Positions 5,641-61,008 of a DNA stretch of 64,000 nt are shown in pieces. Below the pieces are notes generated by a model. The model was given only the letters and a program-made list of their open reading frames with translations, was not told the origin of the DNA and did no database searches. Both the position numbers and the translations under genes were made by a program. Position 1 is the first letter of the stretch. Each line of letters opens with the position of its first letter. Origin of the DNA: Eledone cirrhosa (taxonomy: Eukaryota); the NCBI GenBank assembly GCA_964016885.1, contig OZ024742.1, positions 97,092,001 to 97,156,000 on the forward strand. The letters are read 5' to 3'.

Positions 5641-6750
5641 ACATGAACATAGAAATGATGATGATGATGATGAGTCAGTGAATTTCCACAGATAATATGG
5701 CAAAAAATCAGTTAATTTGAATATTGAAAATAAATAACATTAGGATATATAAAGATAGGAAAACATGAGGCATTAGTCAAAGGTGACAGATTTAATGTGA
5801 AGGCTGTGTTTCTCTTGCCAGCAGGGAAAAGAGACATTAAATGATGAGGGTGGTGATGATGATAAGCTGTGTACTTGTTTGTATGAATCAATATGTAACA
5901 ATCCATCAATCAACATGTGAAAGATAAATGAAGACAGGAAGTTGGATTTGCCCCCTCAAAATATTTGTAAGTGATTTCTACTTTTGCAAGACCCTAGAAG
6001 AGAGGCTGATAACAAGAAAAATGTTGATTCTAATGCCTGGGTGTAGAAAGTAACCAGATGTTATCATTACTCTGCATTAATTTGTCAAATGGTGTTTGAC
6101 AACTGCTCTTCCAACTGGAAAGTCAATAAATTTTCTGGATTAATCTCATTTTACTTTTCCTTCTTCCAGCACCTGTGATTGATCCTGAAAAGGCCATCCT
6201 CTATTTAGATCTGGTCACAGAGAGACAAAAATATTAAATATAATTGCAACACTACCAACTACAGTGGGACTGGTCGTGAAAGAATTTCATGCTCCGGTAC
6301 TAAACGTTTAATTTGAAACTTTCCTCACCATATAGCTGATCATTTTCAAGGTCAGATATATATATTTGCACATTGGATGAGGCACAAAGTGAGATAAAAA
6401 TTTACATTCAAAATATTCATAATTGTTGTTTCATCGATGTAGGTTGGATGGTTAATTCACTTCTCAATCATGGTTCAAGCAAAATGTGTGGCATCTTCAG
6501 CAAGTGTCATTAGCATAGCTTCAAGTTAACCCAAATTTGGTGAGAGATAATTAGTAAAGTAAAACTGTTTGGAAGCCAATTAGAAGGATTGTATCTTTAA
6601 TGTAAATGTCCAGCCTTGACACATATTATCATATGCTAATTAACCTTGGGAATTTAATTAAAAGTACAAATAACTCTGGAATACACAACCACTTCCTTAA
6701 ACATTAATCAATGTTAAAGCTCAGCACCAAAACTAACGGAAGATCTATCA

Positions 6751-7823
6751 TCATTACATAACAATTAGCACTCTTCTGACAAGAAGTAGCAACATATATA
6801 TATATCATTACATAACAATTGGCACTCTTCTGACAAGAAGTAGCAACATATATATATATCATTACATAACAATTGGCACTCTTCTGACAAGAAGTAGCAA
6901 CATATATATATATCATTACATAACAATTGGCACTCTTCTGACAAGAAGTAGCAACATATATATATCATTACATAACAATTGACACTCTTCTGACAAGAAG
7001 TAGCAATATATATATATCATTACATAACAATTGGCACTCTTCTGACAAGAAGTAGCAATATATATATATCATTACATAACAATTGGCACTCTTCTGACAA
7101 GAAACAGCAACATATATATATATCATTACATAACAATTGACACTCTTCTGACAAGAAGTAGCAACATATATATATATCATTACATAACAATTGGCACTCT
7201 TCTGACAAGAAGTAGCAACATATATATATATATATCATTACATAACAATTGGCACTCTTCTGACAAGAAGTAGCAACATATATATATCATTACATAACAA
7301 TTGGCACTCTTCTGACAAGAAACAGCAACATATATATATATCATTACATAACAATTGACACTCTTCTGACAAGAAGTAGCAACATATATATATATCATTA
7401 CATAACAATTGGCACTCTTCTGACAAGAAGTAGCAACATATATATATATATCATTACATAACAATTGGCACTCTTCTGACAAGAAGTAGCAACATATATA
7501 TATCATTACATAACAATTGGCACTCTTCTGACAAGAAGTAGCAACATATATATATATCATTACATAACAATTGGCACTCTTCTGACAAGAAGTAGCAACA
7601 TATATATATATATATCATTACATAACAATTGGCACTCTTCTGACAAGAAGTAGCAACATATATATATCATTACATAACAATTGGCACTCTTCTGACAAGA
7701 AGTAGCAATATATATATATCATTACATAACAATTGGCACTCTTCTGACAAGAAGTAGCAACATATATATATCATTACATAACAATTGACACTCTTCTGAC
7801 AAGAAGTAGCAACATATATATAT
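6751..7823. repeat. Minisatellite, 20 copies of a ~54-bp unit (44-bp core + variable (TA)n)
   Basis: Core TCATTACATAACAATTGGCACTCTTCTGACAAGAAGTAGCAACA counted 20 times. Confidence 0.97.
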
Positions 7824-8026
7824 GGCATTAGGAAAGGCATGAAGCAGAAAAGAAGCCAAAATCAGTTCTGTGTTAGCAAAACATGCTCCTCAGTTCTGAT
7901 CTTTCACAAAAGAACAACGCATCCTACACATACTAGCATGGGAAATGGACATTAAGCAATGATGATGATGATATGTATATATATATATATATATACATAC
8001 ACTTACACATATATACAAACACACAT

Positions 8027-9046: not shown

Positions 9047-9096
9047 AAGTATTACCGGTTTCGATGTATTATTAAAATTCATCTTATCAAATGTTG
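9047..9096 (-). ncRNA. Degenerate type I hammerhead motif, U3-A8 core
   Basis: Minus strand TTGATAA-GATG-(13 nt)-CATC-GAAA-CCGG-TA; helix II and palindromic helix III intact, helix I eroded. Confidence 0.5.
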
Positions 9097-22087: not shown

Positions 22088-22683
22088 TAAGTATATGCAG
22101 AGGTTATATTTAATTTGTTGGGATTCAACAATCTTAAACATTTTTATAACTGATATAAAGCACTCAACAGTTTAGTGGAGTAAATATTCAATATATTAAT
22201 AAATAGAAACTATATTTATAAAACCATAATTATTTTATTATATATATTTAAAGGGCAACCAAGGCAAATTAGGGTGGACTTTCATCAGATAAAATACAGA
22301 TTTGTTTTATAAATAAATATTGAAATACCCGGAAAAAAGAAAACCTTAACGGTTGAAGTTCTCTGGATAGTGGAGATAATATTTTATTGAGGGTGATATA
22401 AAGTTATGAGTGAGTATGCAAATGAGTGTCAGAAAAACTGAAAAAACAATGGTTTATTTAAATTAAACTGTTGGAAGAAAGGAGATGTAAAAGGGAGAGG
22501 GAAAAAATATTGAGAGAGAGAAAAAGATATTTTTTCTCTCTCCCTCTCAATATTTTTTTTCTCTGATGAAAGCGCACCATAATTTATCTGATGAAAGCGC
22601 ACCATAATTTGCCTTGGTTGCTCTTGAAATATATATAATAAAATAATTATGGTTTTATAATTCTAGTTTCGATTTATTAATAT

Positions 22684-30551: not shown

Positions 30552-30580
<29 letters not shown>
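30238..30580. repeat. Interrupted (TA)n tract abutting the Penelope-like element
   Basis: Directly visible. Confidence 0.95.
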
Positions 30581-30589
<9 letters not shown>

Positions 30590-31625
30590 AAGAATCAAAG
30601 AACTGTTCAAAACATTATTGTGCTTACAGCAGGTTTGGATTCTTCGGAGCAATTTATTAATGAATGGACAGTTATATGACCTCCTTTTCAGCCAAGAGAC
30701 ATACCGATACATATGCAAATATTGTGGGTCAACATTCATTACAGAATTTAGAGTGGCAGTACACACTTCGAGATTACATTCATATTAAAAGGTACAATCA
30801 AAAATACAGGTTAAAATACAACATGAAGATAAGCGGTTATATAGTGCAAATGTTATATGTGTGGCAAGCACGTGCGTCTTGTTTATATAGTGTGGCAGAG
30901 AGATACGTGTAGTAGAGGCACTTAGGTAGGTAAACAAGAGTGTTAGGTTGGTTGATCTGGTGGCAAATTCTTTATATGATTGATATAGTCTGTGTGTGGA
31001 GAAATGATATAAGCATTAAAAATAGTGCAAGCATTAAAAATATTAAAAGTATTGGAGATGCATAGCGAAGGGATGGCAAGTACTTCATGTACTTCGACAT
31101 TTTCATGGTCAGGGGAGTGTATTTTTCGATTATATGGCCCTCACATAATCCACGACAATTTGATATTGAGCGTTTGACAATCCAGTTAGAGAATCGTAGT
31201 CTGATGTTCTTTAGTTCAATACGTTTCGTTTCGAGAAACGACATTGAATACCACCCCGAAGTGTGTGTGTGGCTAAGGGGAGTTAATGCATGAGGGGAGG
31301 TAACTCCGGGGTTTCTATACCTAGCTATTGAAATTTGTCTCAATATAGACCCTAATTTCTATGGTTATGCGCAACTTCCAAAAAACTTCTAAAGCATAAA
31401 GTGTTTTAACTATAGAGTAGTTTAATTAAGTTGTGCTGAAGGTGTTCGTATTATTATGGGGAAATAACCCCTATCGTGGGGTGCCACAAATGAATATTAT
31501 AGACGATGAGCGAGGATGCTAAATTAATGATCTCTGTGGTTGTAGTCTACTCATAGGACCAGGCGCGGTGATTCGAGGACCAACTATGGACACGCAAGGA
31601 TACGCACAACAACTTCGACATAACC

Positions 31626-33122
31626 ATGGGATTTAGTGACTCGGCGCAGGTCACTGATTTGGTCGGCCTATACCTTCTCAATGAAATCCATAAGGACCTC
31701 CCTTACCTCAACGGTGGTTTGTACCGCGATGATGCACGTCTACTTATAGAATATAAAAAAATTAATATAGAAAGAACTAGAAAACAATTGCATAAGACAT
31801 TCAAAAACTTTAACCTTAGTATCACCATGGACAAAAACACTAAAAATGTTAACTTCCTAGACGCCACACTATACCTAGACTCAAAAATATATACACCTTT
31901 CCATAAGCCTAACGAAAAACTCATTTACGTAGATACCAAGTCTAATCACTCTAGATCAATATTAAACTCTATCTCTAAGGGGGTGTCCAATAGAATCACT
32001 AGTCTGTCCTATGATGCAAACATATTTAGCAAAAACTCACAATATTACAATCAAGCATTAGCTAGATCCGGCCATAATATAGAAATTGAGTTCCTACCTA
32101 AGAAAACACATAGCTACAACATCATCTCGCACAACATGTCCATGAGGAAACCTAATAATAGGAATAGCAACCACAAGTACACCAAAGCGGAGGGTGCCAC
32201 CGGAAGTAACCATTACCATGGAAACTACTGTGGTGCCTTAGGAAGAAACAACACACCTAACACTAAAAACAAAAATAGAAGAAGAAATAATACATTTTTC
32301 AACCCTCCTTTCAACCTAAATGTCTCCACCAACATACCCAGGGCTTTCTTCTCGCTACTAGATAAAAACTTCCCTCTAGGACACAAGTACCACAACCTTT
32401 TAAACAAAAAAACTATTAAAATCTCATACTCTACGACGCCTAACATAGCATACCACATAGCTAGCAGCAATAAAAGTAAAATTAATTCTTACTTCCAACA
32501 AACAAAATCACAACAGGATGCAAACCTTCTAAATACCTCTGTAGCAAGCAACCATAGTAATGGCAGTAACAATAGAAATAACACTAGTATAAGAAATAAC
32601 ACCGGGGTTGACAACCCGAATGTCCAAAATCCTATAGCTACCACCCAGACTTCTGCACTGCATTATAACCAGCAGACTAACACACAGGATAATTGTAACT
32701 GTAGAGCTAATAGAACCTGCCCTTTAGATAAAAAATGCCTAACCAAGGGTATCATATACTCATGCACCGTCACAACTAGCAACTCTTCAGAAACCTATGT
32801 AGGCTCCACTTCTAACTGCTTCAAAATCAGATATAATTCGCACATCCACTCGTTCAAAAAGCACAGCCTAGCCAACTCCACCTCACTTTCTAGCTACATA
32901 CACTATCTAACAACTAAAAATAAACCATACACACTCAAATGGGAAGTGATAGGCAGCGCGACCTCGTACAAACCACCTAATAAATTTTGTAACCTCTGTA
33001 TACTAGAGACCCACAATATTATCTTCTCCAACCGTAACCTACTTAACAAAAAATCTGAGGTATTTGCAACTTGCCAGCACCGCTTCAGACATTCCTTCCA
33101 AAACTTTAAGCCCAATATATAG
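31626..33122 (+). CDS. PLE polyprotein C-terminal part: RT palm/thumb, Cys linker, GIY-YIG endonuclease (N-terminus lost; the frame begins at ~31575)
   Basis: FDITMG..LVGLYLL..GLYRDD, VNFLD, FNPPF, IKISYS, CNCRANRTCPLDKKC, GIIY..YVGST..FKIRYNSH, CNLC..E..LLNKKSE..CQH; 498 uninterrupted codons. Confidence 0.92.
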   Translation: MGFSDSAQVTDLVGLYLLNEIHKDLPYLNGGLYRDDARLLIEYKKINIERTRKQLHKTFKNFNLSITMDKNTKNVNFLDATLYLDSKIYTPFHKPNEKLIYVDTKSNHSRSILNSISKGVSNRITSLSYDANIFSKNSQYYNQALARSGHNIEIEFLPKKTHSYNIISHNMSMRKPNNRNSNHKYTKAEGATGSNHYHGNYCGALGRNNTPNTKNKNRRRNNTFFNPPFNLNVSTNIPRAFFSLLDKNFPLGHKYHNLLNKKTIKISYSTTPNIAYHIASSNKSKINSYFQQTKSQQDANLLNTSVASNHSNGSNNRNNTSIRNNTGVDNPNVQNPIATTQTSALHYNQQTNTQDNCNCRANRTCPLDKKCLTKGIIYSCTVTTSNSSETYVGSTSNCFKIRYNSHIHSFKKHSLANSTSLSSYIHYLTTKNKPYTLKWEVIGSATSYKPPNKFCNLCILETHNIIFSNRNLLNKKSEVFATCQHRFRHSFQNFKPNI

Positions 33123-34563
33123 CAATATCGGACTTGAACCAAACACCACACCTAGCATCAAACACCAGGGCACACCTTATACAACATACCCAACACTAAC
33201 TGATCTAATATAACACAAACAACGACATCCCTCTGGAACCCTTCGCAGGGAGAATACCCATTTATACCTCTACGTCAGGTGCGACAACATCCACCCACTT
33301 GAACTGCACTACACCGCTCTATGGGTAATTTGAGCATGAATTGATTGGTTTGGTGGTGTTGTGCGGAGGAAGTGCCTTCCTTAGACAGATGAAAAACGAT
33401 TTAATCTCGTAACGCTGTTGAGCAGTAGGACCGGACGCTGAGCGCAGAGAATGAATGTATTGCAACTGGCGTGCGGGTTGTACATATATAGATGATTTGG
33501 CGGTCTGAGAGGGGTCGTGAGGACTGCGGATTGACCTCTGGCCGGACCTGGTGATGATTATCTTTCGACGTCCAATGTAGCAAGCGATGACCCAGAACTT
33601 ACCAGAGATCATTGTGTCTTGAAGTGATTCTGCAATCACCGCGCCTGGTCCTATGAGTAGACTACAACCACAGAGATCATTAATTTAGAATCCTCGCTCA
33701 TCGTCTATAATATTCATTTGTGGCACCCTACGATGGGGGTAATTTCACCATAATAATACGAACACCTTCAGCACAACTTAATTAAACTACTCTATAGTTA
33801 AAACACTTTATGCTTTAGACATTTTTTGGAAGTTGCGCATAACCATAGAAATTAGGGTCTATATTGAGACACATTTCAATAGCTAGGTATAGAAACCCCG
33901 GAGTTACCTCCCCTCATGCATTAACTCCCCTTAGCCACACACACACTTCCGGGTGGTATTCAATGTCGTTTCTCGAAACGTAACAGCCTCCTGTATTGAA
34001 CTAAAGAACATCAGACTACGATTCCCTAACTGGATTGTCAAACGCTGAATATCGAATTGTCGTGGATTATGTGAGGGGCATATAATCGAAAAATACACTC
34101 CCCTGACCATGAAAATGTCGAAGTACATGAAGTACTTGCCATCCCTTCGCTGTGCATCTCCAATACTTTTAATATTTTTAATGCTTGCACTATTTTTAAT
34201 GCTTATATCATTTCTCCACACACAGACTATATCAATCATATAAATAATTTGCAACCAGATCAACCAACCTAACACTCTTGTTTACCTACCTAAGTGCCTC
34301 TACTACACGTATCTCTCTGCCACACTATATAAACAAGAAGCACGTGCTTGCCACACATATAACATTTGCACTATATAACCGCTTATCTTCATGTTGTATT
34401 TTAACCTGTATTTTTGATTGTACCTTTTAATATGAATGTAATCTCGAAGTGTGTACTGCCACTCTAAATTCTGTAATGAATGTTGACCCACAATATTTTC
34501 ATATGTATCGGTATGTCTCTTGGCTGAAAAGGAGGTCATATAACTGTCCATTCATTAATAAAT

Positions 34564-34610
34564 TGCTCCGAAGAATCCAAACCTCGATTTGGAGGAAACA
34601 GCTGTAAGCA
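34564..34610 (+). ncRNA. PLE-associated type I hammerhead motif (C at position 4)
   Basis: TGCT-CCGAAGA-A-TCCAAA-CCTCGA-TTTGGA-G-GAAA-CAGCTG-TA^AGCA. The inverted copy at ~30622-30651 has lost GAAA by deletion. Confidence 0.75.
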
Positions 34611-34814
34611 CAATAATGTTTTGAACAGTTCTTTGATTCTTATATTTCATATAACTGCTCTGTAAATCATCTGATGTTTTTACATTGAGCTACTTAACTT
34701 ACTGGTAATAAGGTAGTAATACATTACTGCCTACCACTATTTAGGGTTTGTATAAAAAATACATATAACTGCATAAGGTTTTTGTATTTACATAAACATA
34801 AATAGTATAATTAA

Positions 34815-37621: not shown

Positions 37622-37877
37622 GCGTGGTTTTGTCTTTGCGTGTAATTGTTCTCCACGCTCCTTATAATGACGTATTATCTTCGTTTATTTTCGTTCTTTG
37701 TCATGGAACGCTTCCACGAACCAAAGTATCGTCTTCCTGTCTTCCTTCGGTTGCAACGTTTTTCGAAATATTTACTTCTGCGTTCACAGATTGCTTTTTT
37801 TTAGTTTCAGAGCATCCCCTTAAGGGTGGAAGCAGCGATTCTTTGCTTAAACTTTAATCTGTTATTTTAATAAATAA

Positions 37878-37882
<5 letters not shown>
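37622..37882 (+). mobile_element. Fragment of the CAGAAGA-hammerhead repeat family
   Basis: Co-linear with 56410-56640; degenerate HHR at ~37803-37853; ends in (TA)n. Confidence 0.75.
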
Positions 37883-37950
<68 letters not shown>

Positions 37951-37953
<3 letters not shown>

Positions 37954-38460
37954 CAACTCACATAATTTTCGGCAGACAGGGAGAGTAGTGAGTTTTGATA
38001 AGTACCAAAAAGTACGAAACAGAGCTGTGAACTTATCTCCCCCTGTCTGCCGAAAATTTAAGTAAGCGACAATGTCGCTACTTTAAAACAATTGCATATA
38101 GTCTTCAAAATATTTTTAATTAAGCATACAGTGTATTGCAAAATACACTATATATACATTCATATATAAATCGCTATTTCAGAGCACCAATTCTAATTAT
38201 CAATTTCTGCTGGGCCGGCGACCGCTTGTAAAATCAGTTCCCGATTGTTACTGGAATTCTATAAGAATCCAACACACATAATTTTCGGCAGATAGGGAGA
38301 GTAGTGAGTTTTGATACGTACCAAAAAGTACGAAACAGAGCTGTCAACTCATCTCCCCCTGTCTGCCGAAAACTTTAGTAAGCGACAATGTCGCTACTTT
38401 GAAACAATAGCGTATAATTACGCAAACAGTGTATTGCAAAATACACTATATATACATTCA
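37951..38460 (+). mobile_element. ~1.6 tandem copies of a 316-bp hammerhead repeat (sister family of the 310-bp array)
   Basis: GGCAGA recurs at 37971 and 38287; HHR motifs at 37989-38035 and 38305-38351; 38100-38243 is homologous to the 310-bp unit; (TA)n on both sides. Confidence 0.85.
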
Positions 38461-38484
38461 TATATATATATGTATATATATATA

Positions 38485-38535
<51 letters not shown>

Positions 38536-42016: not shown

Positions 42017-42070
<54 letters not shown>

Positions 42071-42190
42071 TATAGACATAGAATATTCGAAAATATTCTG
42101 TATGTTTATAATAAACATTTTGAAGACCTAATCGCTATAGAATAGAATACGTCACGTATTACAATTAGATTCTCGATAAAAGCAAGGGAA

Positions 42191-42233
42191 GTAATCTACG
42201 CGTTTCATTCTAGTTAGAAATCATCAGGACTAC
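42191..42233 (-). ncRNA. Type I hammerhead ribozyme, first of 9 minus-strand copies spaced 310 bp
   Basis: Reverse complement of GTAGTC-CTGATGA-TTTCTAACTAGAAT-GAAA-CGCG-TA^GATTAC. Confidence 0.88.
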
Positions 42234-45066
42234 ATATCCAGTGCTTTTATCGAGAATGACACAGCTAGAGACTTATAGAATACTTAGCTGTGTACAGGAA
42301 CTGGTTTGAAAGAGCGGTTGCCGGTCCGGCAGAAATTAGAAATTGGAATAAATGCTCTGAAATAGCGATATATATGTGAATATAGACATAGAATATTCGA
42401 AAATATTCTGTATGTTTATAATAAACATTTTGAAGACCTAATCGCTATAGAATAGAATACGTCACGTATTACAATTAGATTCTCGATAAAAGCAAGGGAA
42501 GTAATCTACGCGTTTCATTCTAGTTAGAAATCATCAGGACTACATATCCAGTGCTTTTATCGAGAATGACACAGCTAGAGACTTATAGAATACTTAGCTG
42601 TGTACAGGAACTGGTTTGAAAGAGCGGTTGCCGGTCCGGCAGAAATTAGAAATTGGAATAAATGCTCTGAAATAGCGATATATATGTGAATATAGACATA
42701 GAATATTCGAAAATATTCTGTATGTTTATAATAAACATTTTGAAGACCTAATCGCTATAGAATAGAATACGTCACGTATTACAATTAGATTCTCGATAAA
42801 AGCAAGGGAAGTAATCTACGCGTTTCATTCTAGTTAGAAATCATCAGGACTACATATCCAGTGCTTTTATCGAGAATGACACAGCTAGAGACTTATAGAA
42901 TACTTAGCTGTGTACAGGAACTGGTTTGAAAGAGCGGTTGCCGGTCCGGCAGAAATTAGAAATTGGAATAAATGCTCTGAAATAGCGATATATATGTGAA
43001 TATAGACATAGAATATTCGAAAATATTCTGTATGTTTATAATAAACATTTTGAAGACCTAATCGCTATAGAATAGAATACGTCACGTATTACAATTAGAT
43101 TCTCGATAAAAGCAAGGGAAGTAATCTACGCGTTTCATTCTAGTTAGAAATCATCAGGACTACATATCCAGTGCTTTTATCGAGAATGACACAGCTAGAG
43201 ACTTATAGAATACTTAGCTGTGTACAGGAACTGGTTTGAAAGAGCGGTTGCCGGTCCGGCAGAAATTAGAAATTGGAATAAATGCTCTGAAATAGCGATA
43301 TATATGTGAATATAGACATAGAATATTCGAAAATATTCTGTATGTTTATAATAAACATTTTGAAGACCTAATCGCTATAGAATAGAATACGTCACGTATT
43401 ACAATTAGATTCTCGATAAAAGCAAGGGAAGTAATCTACGCGTTTCATTCTAGTTAGAAATCATCAGGACTACATATCCAGTGCTTTTATCGAGAATGAC
43501 ACAGCTAGAGACTTATAGAATACTTAGCTGTGTACAGGAACTGGTTTGAAAGAGCGGTTGCCGGTCCGGCAGAAATTAGAAATTGGAATAAATGCTCTGA
43601 AATAGCGATATATATGTGAATATAGACATAGAATATTCGAAAATATTCTGTATGTTTATAATAAACATTTTGAAGACCTAATCGCTATAGAATAGAATAC
43701 GTCACGTATTACAATTAGATTCTCGATAAAAGCAAGGGAAGTAATCTACGCGTTTCATTCTAGTTAGAAATCATCAGGACTACATATCCAGTGCTTTTAT
43801 CGAGAATGACACAGCTAGAGACTTATAGAATACTTAGCTGTGTACAGGAACTGGTTTGAAAGAGCGGTTGCCGGTCCGGCAGAAATTAGAAATTGGAATA
43901 AATGCTCTGAAATAGCGATATATATGTGAATATAGACATAGAATATTCGAAAATATTCTGTATGTTTATAATAAACATTTTGAAGACCTAATCGCTATAG
44001 AATAGAATACGTCACGTATTACAATTAGATTCTCGATAAAAGCAAGGGAAGTAATCTACGCGTTTCATTCTAGTTAGAAATCATCAGGACTACATATCCA
44101 GTGCTTTTATCGAGAATGACACAGCTAGAGACTTATAGAATACTTAGCTGTGTACAGGAACTGGTTTGAAAGAGCGGTTGCCGGTCCGGCAGAAATTAGA
44201 AATTGGAATAAATGCTCTGAAATAGCGATATATATGTGAATATAGACATAGAATATTCGAAAATATTCTGTATGTTTATAATAAACATTTTGAAGACCTA
44301 ATCGCTATAGAATAGAATACGTCACGTATTACAATTAGATTCTCGATAAAAGCAAGGGAAGTAATCTACGCGTTTCATTCTAGTTAGAAATCATCAGGAC
44401 TACATATCCAGTGCTTTTATCGAGAATGACACAGCTAGAGACTTATAGAATACTTAGCTGTGTACAGGAACTGGTTTGAAAGAGCGGTTGCCGGTCCGGC
44501 AGAAATTAGAAATTGGAATAAATGCTCTGAAATAGCGATATATATGTGAATATAGACATAGAATATTCGAAAATATTCTGTATGTTTATAATAAACATTT
44601 TGAAGACCTAATCGCTATAGAATAGAATACGTCACGTATTACAATTAGATTCTCGATAAAAGCAAGGGAAGTAATCTACGCGTTTTATTCTAGTTAGAAA
44701 TCATCAGGACTACATATCCAGTGCTTTTATCGAGAATGACACAGCTAGAGACTTATATAGTCCTGATGATTTCTAACTAGAATGAAACGCGTAGATTACT
44801 TCCCTTGCTTTTATCGAGAATCTAATTGTAATACGTGACGTATTCTATTCTATAGCGATTAGGTCTTCAAAATGTTTATTATAAACATACAGAATATTTT
44901 CGAATATTCTATGTCTATATTCACATATATATCGCTATTTCAGAGCATTTATTCCAATTTCTAATTTCTGCCGGACCGGCAACCGCTCTTTCAAACCAGT
45001 TCCTGTACACAGCTAAGTATTCTATAAGTCTCTAGCTGTGTCATTCTCGATAAAAGCACTGGATAT

Positions 45067-45109
45067 GTAGTCCTGATGATTTCTAACTAGAATGAAACGC
45101 GTAGATTAC
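45067..45109 (+). ncRNA. Type I hammerhead ribozyme, one of 4 plus-strand copies (44758, 45067, 45377, 45687)
   Basis: Helix I GTAGTC/GATTAC, core CTGATGA and GAAA, helix II TTCT-AACT-AGAA, palindromic helix III ACGCGT; predicted cleavage after GUA at 45103. Confidence 0.88.
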
Positions 45110-45882
45110 TTCCCTTGCTTTTATCGAGAATCTAATTGTAATACGTGACGTATTCTATTCTATAGCGATTAGGTCTTCAAAATGTTTATTATAAACATAC
45201 AGAATATTTTCGAATATTCTATGTCTACATTCACATATATATCGCTATTTCAGAGCATTTATTCCAATTTCTAATTTCTGCCGGACCGGCAACCGCTCTT
45301 TCAAACCAGTTCCTGTACACAGCTAAGTATTCTATAAGTCTCTAGCTGTGTCATTCTCGATAAAAGCACTGGATATGTAGTCCTGATGATTTCTAACTAG
45401 AATGAAACGCGTAGATTACTTCCCTTGCTTTTATCGAGAATCTAATTGTAATACGTGACGTATTCTATTCTATAGCGATTAGGTCTTCAAAATGTTTATT
45501 ATAAACATACAGAATATTTTCGAATATTCTATGTCTATATTCACATATATATCGCTATTTCAGAGCATTTATTCCAATTTCTAATTTCTGCCGGACCGGC
45601 AACCGCTCTTTCAAACCAGTTCCTGTACACAGCTAAGTATTCTATAAGTCTCTAGCTGTGTCATTCTCGATAAAAGCACTGGATATGTAGTCCTGATGAT
45701 TTCTAACTAGAATGAAACGCGTAGATTACTTCCCTTGCTTTTATCGAGAATCTAATTGTAATACGTGACGTATTCTATTCTATAGCGATTAGGTCTTCAA
45801 AATGTTTATTATAAACATACAGAATATTTTCGAATATTCTATGTCTATATTCACATATATATCGCTATTTCAGAGCATTTAT

Positions 45883-45956
<74 letters not shown>

Positions 45957-59002: not shown

Positions 59003-59440
59003 TAAAATAAAGTAAAATAAATAAGTAAAATGTTTAAAATTTAGCTTCGTTTATTACTGCTATATATATTTCGATGACAGCCATCTTTGGCTGTCACCTC
59101 TTCAGGCAGTCCGAATTAGTGTGGTATAGACAAGTACATATGTTGTTGAGGTGTATAATTTTGTCAATACTCTGATATACCCAGTTCCTGGTTGGATTGT
59201 TATTTCACTGAGGAACTGAAATCATATGATTCCAGTTCCTCAGTGAAATAACAATCCAACCAGGAACTGGGTATATCAGAGTATTGACAAAATTATACAC
59301 CTCAACAACATATGTACTTGTCTATACCACACTAATTCGGACTGCCTGAAGAGGTCACAGCCAAAGATGGCTGTCACCGAAATATATATAGCAGTAATAA
59401 ACGAAGCTAAAGTTTAAACATTTGACTTTTTATTTTACTT

Positions 59441-59961: not shown

Positions 59962-61008
59962 TATATAATTGAATAAACTAAAGAGATGAACACTAATATA
60001 AACATACATGTGTTCGGATCGTAAGGACTAGGTTAGCTAGGGTGAAAAAATACTAACTACAGCAATGTGCTTTTTCAGAGTTAATTTTTAGTAGTAAATT
60101 AAGAAAAATAACAGACCTATATCAGGCAATAGCCTGGTAACAACTGGACAGTTTTGAAAACTGTTTCGCAACATCTTATTAAGTGAAGTCAACACGTTTC
60201 TCTGCTCCTCAGTAGTTGTTGAGAAATTAGCGATCCTTCCACTTCTAAAAATATTAGAAGACTGAATTGTGTGCGATATGAAATAGCGCACGTGTCTCCG
60301 AAACCTAGCATGTCTCGAAATCCCATGCCGCTAGAAATAACAGTCTGGTTAACAAGACATTGAAATTAGCTCTACATGATGGAGCCGACAAATATATAGT
60401 GAGTTAGAAACTCAGAGTAGTCTCTTACAATTAAATAGCTCTAAGAAAAAAGCTTTTCCGAGCCGTGTAATATAATTGAATAAATAAGAGAGATGAACAC
60501 TATATATTTGTCGGCTCCATCATCTAGAGTTAATTTTAATGTCTTGTTAACTGCTATTTTTAGCGGCATGGGATTTCGAGACAAGCCGGGTTCCGGAGAC
60601 ACGTGCGCTATTCCATAGCGCACACAATTCAGTCTGCTAATATTTTTAGAAGTGGAAGGATCACTAATTTCTCAACAACTACTGAGGAGCAGAGAAACGT
60701 GTTGACTTCACTTCATAAGATGTTGCGAAACAGTTTTCAAAACTGTCTAGTTGTTACCAGGCTATCGCCCGATATAGGTCTGTTATTTTTCTTAATTTAC
60801 TACTTAAAATTAAGTCTGACAAACCATATTGCTGTACTTACCATTTTTTCCCCCTAGCTAACCTAGTCCTTACGATCCGAACACATGTCAGTTTATATTA
60901 GTGTTCATCTCTCTTGTTTATTCAATTATATTACACGGCTCGAAAAAGCTTTTTTTCTTAGAGCTATTTAATTGTAAGAGACTACTCTGAGTTTCTATCT
61001 CACTATAT
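59962..61008. mobile_element. ~505-bp hammerhead family, head-to-head pair (minus ~59962-60502, plus ~60498-61008)
   Basis: HHR on plus 60674-60755: AACAACTA-CTGAGGA-GC..GC-GAAA-CAGTTTTCAAAACTG-TC^TAGTTGTT. HHR on minus 60139-60220. Confidence 0.9.

Follow-up and report, generated by a model that had tools for sequence, protein, structure and literature searches.

A tandem hammerhead repeat with a mostly U3-A8 core and Penelope-type copy ends in the genome of Eledone cirrhosa

Two hammerhead copies in a decayed tandem repeat

We analyzed a stretch of 64,000 nucleotides of the Eledone cirrhosa genome (assembly GCA_964016885.1, contig OZ024742.1, positions 97,092,001 to 97,156,000 of the forward strand), referred to here as the window. 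Its plus strand carries a 5'-truncated insertion (37951..38471) of about 1.65 units of a 316-nt tandem repeat, which ends at the main fixed 3' end of its family. The insertion lies between two (AT)n runs, one on the 5' side (37870..37950), likely the insertion target, and one on the 3' side (38472..38533), and no open reading frame of at least 110 aa was found over 37951-38471. It holds two hammerhead copies whose cores are 316 nt apart, and a full 316-nt unit, the predicted monomer or circle, stretches between their predicted cleavage sites (38030..38345, +). Within this unit, a stretch of about 27 nt (38172..38198, +) corresponds to the optional 3' tail of other copies.

Re-reading the sequence returned the letters of both hammerheads as a preliminary description of this DNA had quoted them. 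Copy 1, delimited with its extended helix I by folding and Rfam alignment (37966..38056, +), comprises the 5' strand of helix I (37989-37994), an intact core at positions 3-9 that reads TTGATAA and thus pairs U3 with A8 (37995-38001), a 4-bp helix II GTAC/GTAC with G10.1-C11.1 and a 6-nt loop 2, CAAAAA (38002-38015), the GAAA (38016-38019), a near-palindromic helix III in which 8 of 10 letters are self-complementary, followed by N17 (38019..38029), and the 3' strand of helix I (38030-38035). This order of helix I, core, helix II, GAAA, helix III, NUH and helix I is that of a type I hammerhead. Copy 2 (38282..38372, +) is also U3-A8; its core reads TTGATAC (38311-38317) with an A9C change at 38317, and its GUC site is intact, with N17 at 38345, followed by AACTCA (38346-38351). 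In both copies, the hammerhead parts were correctly described beforehand, but the surrounding element and an extension of helix I had been overlooked: the 6 bp of helix I lead through an internal loop 1 into about 20 further bp (37966-37985 with 38036-38056 in copy 1), and the folds that include this extension stand well apart from shuffles (z -8.6, for copy 1, and -8.4).

Copy 1 follows the layout of the Rfam family Hammerhead_HH9 in its 6-bp helix I, its internal loop and its 6-nt loop 2, and the letters of loop 2 are those of the HH9 consensus. A small-region scan aligned the whole HH9 model (RF02275) to copy 1 at 19.7 bits and E 0.025, far below the gathering score of 52 bits, and a scan of the whole window returned no hammerhead at E<=1, only microRNA matches driven by microsatellites. 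This shortfall is not due to U3-A8 alone, since a copy from a C3-G8 sister subfamily also stays below gathering (14.6 vs 34 bits, RF00163). In 20 shuffles of the window, no descriptor match reached the score of copy 1 (11 or more).

Each window copy departs from its relatives at one catalytic position. Copy 1 has a GUG site, with G at N17 (38029) where the family has C, and copy 2 has A9C. The preliminary description had regarded these as private lesions, and the family bears this out: among 43 copies of the window subfamily, 42 retain A9 and 39 retain GUC, and GUG and A9C each occur once, both times in the window. In one sample comprising three contig runs, C at 38029 and A at 38317 were the common letters. 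The locus is a decayed copy of the 316-nt repeat. As G17 lowers the rate 8- to 100-fold in tertiary-stabilized hammerheads (PMC3884650), copy 1 is weakened but need not be dead. If the two copies folded as a dimer, copy 1 would bring its intact core to the GUC site of copy 2, which is likewise intact.

Several other repeats share the window. An inverted and tandem array of 310-bp units (42058..45888) is a distant relative in the same superfamily (77-78% identity over 142 aligned columns) with C3-G8 cores, nine on the minus strand and four on the plus strand, 99% alike. It has U-U at 10.1-11.1, a tail like that of the 316-nt family followed by (AT)n, and G12 changed to A in one core. An inverted pair of canonical C3-G8 hammerheads lies at 59061-59105 (-) and 59346-59390 (+), with an 11-bp helix II in the intact copy and TATATA as loop III; a decayed motif like these is found at 22588-22637. 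A canonical-core hammerhead-like match with an 8-bp helix I, a 7-bp helix III and a long loop 2 occupies 60682-60747, and a 54-bp minisatellite of about 20 copies, each closed by an AT run, occupies 6750-7830.

The U3-A8 core in the family and the genome

The preliminary description had proposed that the consensus of this family is U3-A8 and not CTGATGA, and genome searches uphold it. A pattern left open at positions 3, 7 and 8 has 39 exact matches in the genome, of which 37 are U3-A8, one U3-G8, one C3-A8 and none C3-G8. A looser, family-level pattern gave 1,537 matches against none for the reversed control, and among the 100 listed there are 90 with U3-A8, 8 with C3-G8 and 2 mismatched. Sampling through the repeat body gave a similar picture: the genome holds 4,280 exact matches to a 20-nt hairpin of the body, and among 37 anchors sampled through it, 21 had a readable core, 16 of them U3-A8, 4 C3-G8 and 1 other.

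A genome-wide search allowing U3-A8, which had been put forward as a check, was run with a descriptor that fixed G10.1, C11.1 and C15.2-G16.2 and left the stems unchecked. It returned 28,004 U3-A8 matches (control 573) and 13,854 C3-G8 matches (control 226); all four 3-8 states together gave 42,613 (control 1,155), with 755 mismatched, or about 1.8%. By match count, U3-A8 thus exceeds C3-G8 about 2:1 across the genome, in counts that contain some double ends and in which a few expanded families predominate. As had been foreseen, a search for CUGANGA only would lose about two-thirds of these descriptor matches. At least six unrelated-looking U3-A8 stems occur among the matches listed.

The commonest U3-A8 family among the 100 U3-A8 census matches listed, of which it fills more than half, has a GCAG/CTGC helix II, a GUA site and a short helix I. 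It often forms inverted pairs, and no ORF was linked to it in the four loci inspected (L226, L227, L231, L241). Two other loci (L235, L242) hold tandem arrays of 466-469 nt units whose canonical C3-G8 hammerheads have a long, extended helix I; these are classic retrozyme-like arrays, with more than 30 units at one locus.

Positions 3 and 8 vary together among relatives of the window repeat. A C3-G8 sister subfamily (106 matches) has a consensus 89% identical over 351 aligned columns and a like spacing of 317-318 nt. Across 169 distinct copies, a non-random sample gathered from all loci, 123 carry U3-A8, 39 C3-G8 and 7 another combination; the pair is Watson-Crick, U-A or C-G, in 162 of them, the window copies having U-A and not C-G itself. 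The double change had been described as compensatory, and homologous subfamilies do carry either C3-G8 or U3-A8, with a mismatch in only these 7 copies. In the consensuses of the 10 subfamilies with at least two copies, 120 of 130 cells of helices I-III are paired, several pairs having been altered on both sides, and U4, G5, A6, A9, G12-A14 (GAAAC), A15.1-U16.1 and H17 are invariant.

Trees built without columns 3, 7 and 8 require three changes of the pair, two of which well-supported branches make unavoidable. A clade uniting all U3-A8 members was rejected both with 28 copies (p-AU 0.011) and with 15 consensus or single rows (4e-35), the latter tree leaving out 11 singleton clusters. The window subfamily belongs to a U3-A8 clade (support 100/97) nested among C3-G8 rows, and another subfamily that is U3-A8 in 27 of 27 copies falls outside this main clade. 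As judged from these trees, subfamilies appear to have swapped between C3-G8 and U3-A8 at least twice, and recombination between subfamilies may have contributed. The long outgroup branch leaves the root of the tree uncertain; a reading in which U3-A8 is ancestral and C3-G8 derived is not favored, with the main U3-A8 clade lying inside the C3-G8 rows. Restricting the tree to the 3' body gave little resolution, and we set this tree aside because it is confounded by the difference between tail and AT run. The covariation in the superfamily rests on only two or three switches, the copies being non-independent events. The length of loop 2 follows the pair, with a longer spacer in 94 of 95 U3-A8 copies and a shorter one in 35 of 38 C3-G8 copies (6 nt vs 5 nt in the sister subfamilies), again through only two or three events.

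Related subfamilies carry U-U or C-A at 10.1-11.1. One U3-A8 subfamily (27 copies at L289-L317; for example, L291:1545-1620) combines a fixed C-A at this position with a perfectly palindromic helix III, and its core is therefore doubly non-standard.

The switch from C3-G8 to U3-A8 most likely arose by compensatory drift, with selection keeping the pair. It would have taken two transitions, C-to-U and G-to-A, probably via a U3-G8 wobble, and U-A would keep the Watson-Crick geometry of a pair known as a contact of the active fold (PMC3884650). U3-A8 ribozymes are stated to be active in vitro (PMC3088659, citing earlier work). U3-A8 could instead be a selected attenuator, in which cutting that is slower or depends on protein would leave a Penelope enzyme with more multimeric template. 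The 2:1 excess, which rises to about 1,400 vs 106 among matches with the GTAC stem, the at least two switches and the sharing of U3-A8 by several unrelated families would all fit this explanation, as would the report that RNA left unprocessed serves as the main template of a Penelope enzyme in vitro (PMC11167929). However, drift predicts the same direction, because both transitions go toward A+T in an AT-rich genome; moreover, a few expansions dominate the counts and C3-G8 families form large arrays too. We regard selected attenuation as quite unlikely and retain compensatory drift as the favored explanation.

Copy ends and a probable Penelope-type route

The repeat is a non-coding head-to-tail unit whose length falls in the range of 170-400 nt, and each unit has a single type I hammerhead, as in retrozymes. 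Nine site-to-site intervals from other loci give units of 316-320 nt. Its copies end in an ordered way: 145 of 170 3' ends fall into two modes about 27 nt apart, and AT runs follow 94 of 144 modal 3' ends. The 5' ends, 208 in all, are scattered, the 5' part is often inverted, and 73 of 170 segments extend beyond one unit. An optional tail, 5' truncation with inversion and (TA)n targets are thus all present in the repeat, and a tail, inversion and (TA)n bias make up the signature of Penelope-like elements (PMC8557442). The tail of about 27 nt is slightly below the 30-40 bp of those elements, and in vitro the tail length is the distance between two internal reverse-transcription start sites (PMC11167929). 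At the predicted cleavage site, 5' ends are weakly enriched at most (within 5 nt, 11 where 7.2 are expected, and within 10 nt, 21 where 13.8 are expected). The scattered 5' ends, the two fixed 3' ends, the inversions and the (AT)n flanks mark the repeat as a probable non-coding retrozyme that is likely moved by Penelope-type enzymes.

A second U3-A8 hammerhead-like motif lies on the minus strand of the window (9047..9096), with its core at 9090-9084, a GATG/CATC helix II, a GUA site and a helix I of 2 bp. The preliminary description had presented it as an independent occurrence of the same TTGATAA core. The motif is real and the core is the norm of its family, with TTGATAA in 33 of 33 aligned copies and U3-A8 in 97 of the 100 matches listed of 3,159, none of which is C3-G8. 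The strength that had been implied did not hold up: shuffled versions fold as well as the window copy does (z -0.18), and its activity is more doubtful because helix I is only 2 bp. The independence of the two families has negative support, in that they show no similarity beyond the core (best E 0.055), together with the position of the first family's U3-A8 clade inside C3-G8 relatives.

The short repeat of the 9047-9096 family resembles the terminal repeat (pLTR) of an autonomous element (68-71%, E 7e-15), and both pLTRs of that element carry TTGAAAA cores, also U3-A8. These hammerhead-like motifs have a helix I of 2 bp, and the element that carries them has spread to many copies. A 777-aa frame of the element resembles HTH_animal/GIY-YIG/RT clusters of look-alike proteins and was not recognized in Pfam and PDB sequence searches; we take the element to be of Penelope type from these look-alikes together with known motifs. 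Seen at four loci (L218, L219, L220, L224), it is about 4.7-4.9 kb long with two long frames, and is young and abundant. The window itself holds another Penelope-type element (30580-34700), with a 516-aa frame (31572-33122, +) that has a faint GIY-YIG match and a long inverted repeat flanking it; a descriptor search found no hammerhead in this element. Between the 316-nt repeat and the autonomous element there is only a weak likeness at the 3' end (E 0.004), partly owing to the AT run, and no autonomous partner with the sequence of the repeat was found among the examined loci; in L274, tblastn gave no ORF match within the 2.45 kb that separate two direct repeats.

We propose, at a probability of roughly 80%, that the repeat is a tandem unit with a family-wide U3-A8 hammerhead, predicted to cut at GUC, that is likely circularized and likely recopied into (AT)n by a Penelope-type enzyme. 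Tandem transcripts from source copies would be cut at GUC by the hammerhead of the source element, giving unit-length RNA. Cutting would probably take place in a strand-swapped dimer formed through the palindromic helix III, since the folding predictions pair this helix across copies and not inside a single one: its self-duplex reaches -9.0 kcal/mol, or -16.9 in a common variant, and no monomer hairpin is predicted. The monomers would then be joined into circles, as shown for retrozyme RNA in coral, mussel and axolotl (PMC7229834). In the predicted fold, the site-to-site unit as a circle reaches -78.9 kcal/mol (z -6.7), with none of 60 shuffles as stable, and is 63% paired; much of this pairing comes from the extended helix I, which holds the two ends of the unit together. 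A Penelope-type reverse transcriptase/endonuclease acting in trans would start at one of two internal sites and copy more than one round into AT-rich DNA. Several points count against this explanation. Cleavage is dispensable for insertion of an anole Penelope element in vitro (PMC11167929), and minimal Penelope hammerheads cleave poorly (PMC4209133); an intact copy in the hammerhead fold is 4.6 kcal/mol less stable than its predicted minimum, and the low Rfam scores, the weak enrichment of 5' ends and the missing autonomous partner weigh in the same direction.

Such observations could also mean that the motif no longer cuts, its fold being kept as a structural or protein-binding element or as a long hairpin, and that uncut tandem transcripts are copied. 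The 20-bp extended stem does dominate folding, 5' ends cluster little at the predicted site, related subfamilies tolerate U-U or C-A at 10.1-11.1, and the 9047 family makes do with a helix I of only 2 bp. However, the catalytic letters are invariant across the 10 subfamilies while the stems change in pairs, and each switch preserved the 3-8 pair, one of the contacts in the active fold (PMC3884650); we consider a non-cutting fold very unlikely. Alternatively, the repeat could be no more than an ordinary satellite or a terminal repeat truncated from an autonomous Penelope element, as the one or two units of most copies and the pLTR likeness of the 9047 family might suggest, but both readings are largely refuted and highly improbable: head-to-tail units have no ORF between them and form arrays of at least six units (six cores in L225), the Penelope ORF fragments in the flanks vary by locus and are not joined to the unit (tblastn with two Penelope-type ORFs at sampled loci), and dispersed copies with fixed 3' ends misfit unequal crossing-over alone.

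Relation to known hammerheads and significance

The preliminary description had implied that the U3-A8 core is new, and this does not stand, as natural U3-A8 cores are already published (PMC3088659, PMC4209133). Perreault and colleagues reported in 2011 that C3-G8 covaries to U3-A8, rarely and in several examples (PMC3088659). They also noted a U10.1-U11.1 mismatch, as in the older subfamilies here; switching within a family, which we see in the Eledone repeat, is absent from the relevant section of that report. In Schistosoma mansoni, Cercyon Penelope-like elements hold about 1,300 U3-A8 motifs beside about 2,000 canonical minimal ones (PMC4209133). The Eledone repeat resembles these in U3-A8 covariation, genome scale, Penelope context and a palindromic helix III region. 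Whereas the Cercyon motifs are minimal, with a long helix II and a poor loop 1 (PMC4209133), the Eledone repeat has a helix I of 6 bp, a helix II of 4 bp with a 6-nt loop and a helix III of 3-4 bp. It also differs in that U3-A8 is the majority state and an 89% identical C3-G8 sister is present. The marks of minimal hammerheads, namely a long helix II, an unpaired letter after A9 and a helix III that is absent or of 1-2 bp, do not apply to the 316-nt family, in which the 4-bp helix II starts directly after A9.

Metazoan non-LTR retrozymes share with the repeat a tandem unit of 170-400 nt, a type I hammerhead and low G+C, as well as a highly self-paired predicted circle, co-occurring Penelope-like elements and proposed mobilization by them; they have been proposed as non-autonomous Penelope derivatives (PMC7229834; bioRxiv 10.64898/2026.07.22.740005). 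Unlike the accounts of retrozymes in these sources, which make no mention of U3-A8 in the parts available to us, the Eledone repeat has U3-A8 in most subfamilies. It further differs in its mostly 1-2 units, Penelope-type tail and 5' inversion, and its circular RNA is a predicted one.

In the main texts of the literature we consulted, U3-A8 appears only in PMC3088659 and PMC4209133. Neither a U3-A8 majority core nor switching within one family is reported in these main texts. The U3-A8 variant itself is thus already known, and what appears new relative to the literature found, as judged from the sequence comparisons, is its majority status together with repeated switching within a family. Work on dimer-cleaving Penelope hammerhead variants may bear on this novelty.

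These findings have several implications. Censuses built on CUGANGA, such as the core search of PMC8557442, would miss about two-thirds of the matches in the Eledone genome. The switches seen among close relatives in the family are direct evolutionary support for the 3-8 pair, and the copy ends provide independent evidence that animal retrozymes are inserted by Penelope-type enzymes. The sister subfamilies are ready pairs for asking whether U3-A8 is neutral or slows cutting. A bolder reading, which we consider unlikely, is that U3-A8, the majority hammerhead in this genome, was reached repeatedly from C3-G8 within a single retrozyme superfamily and separately in autonomous Penelope elements, because it sets cutting at a rate favorable to retrotransposition. 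If this were true, the C3-G8 and U3-A8 sisters, which differ in loop 2 length as well, would offer a natural experiment on the traits for which genomic hammerheads are selected.
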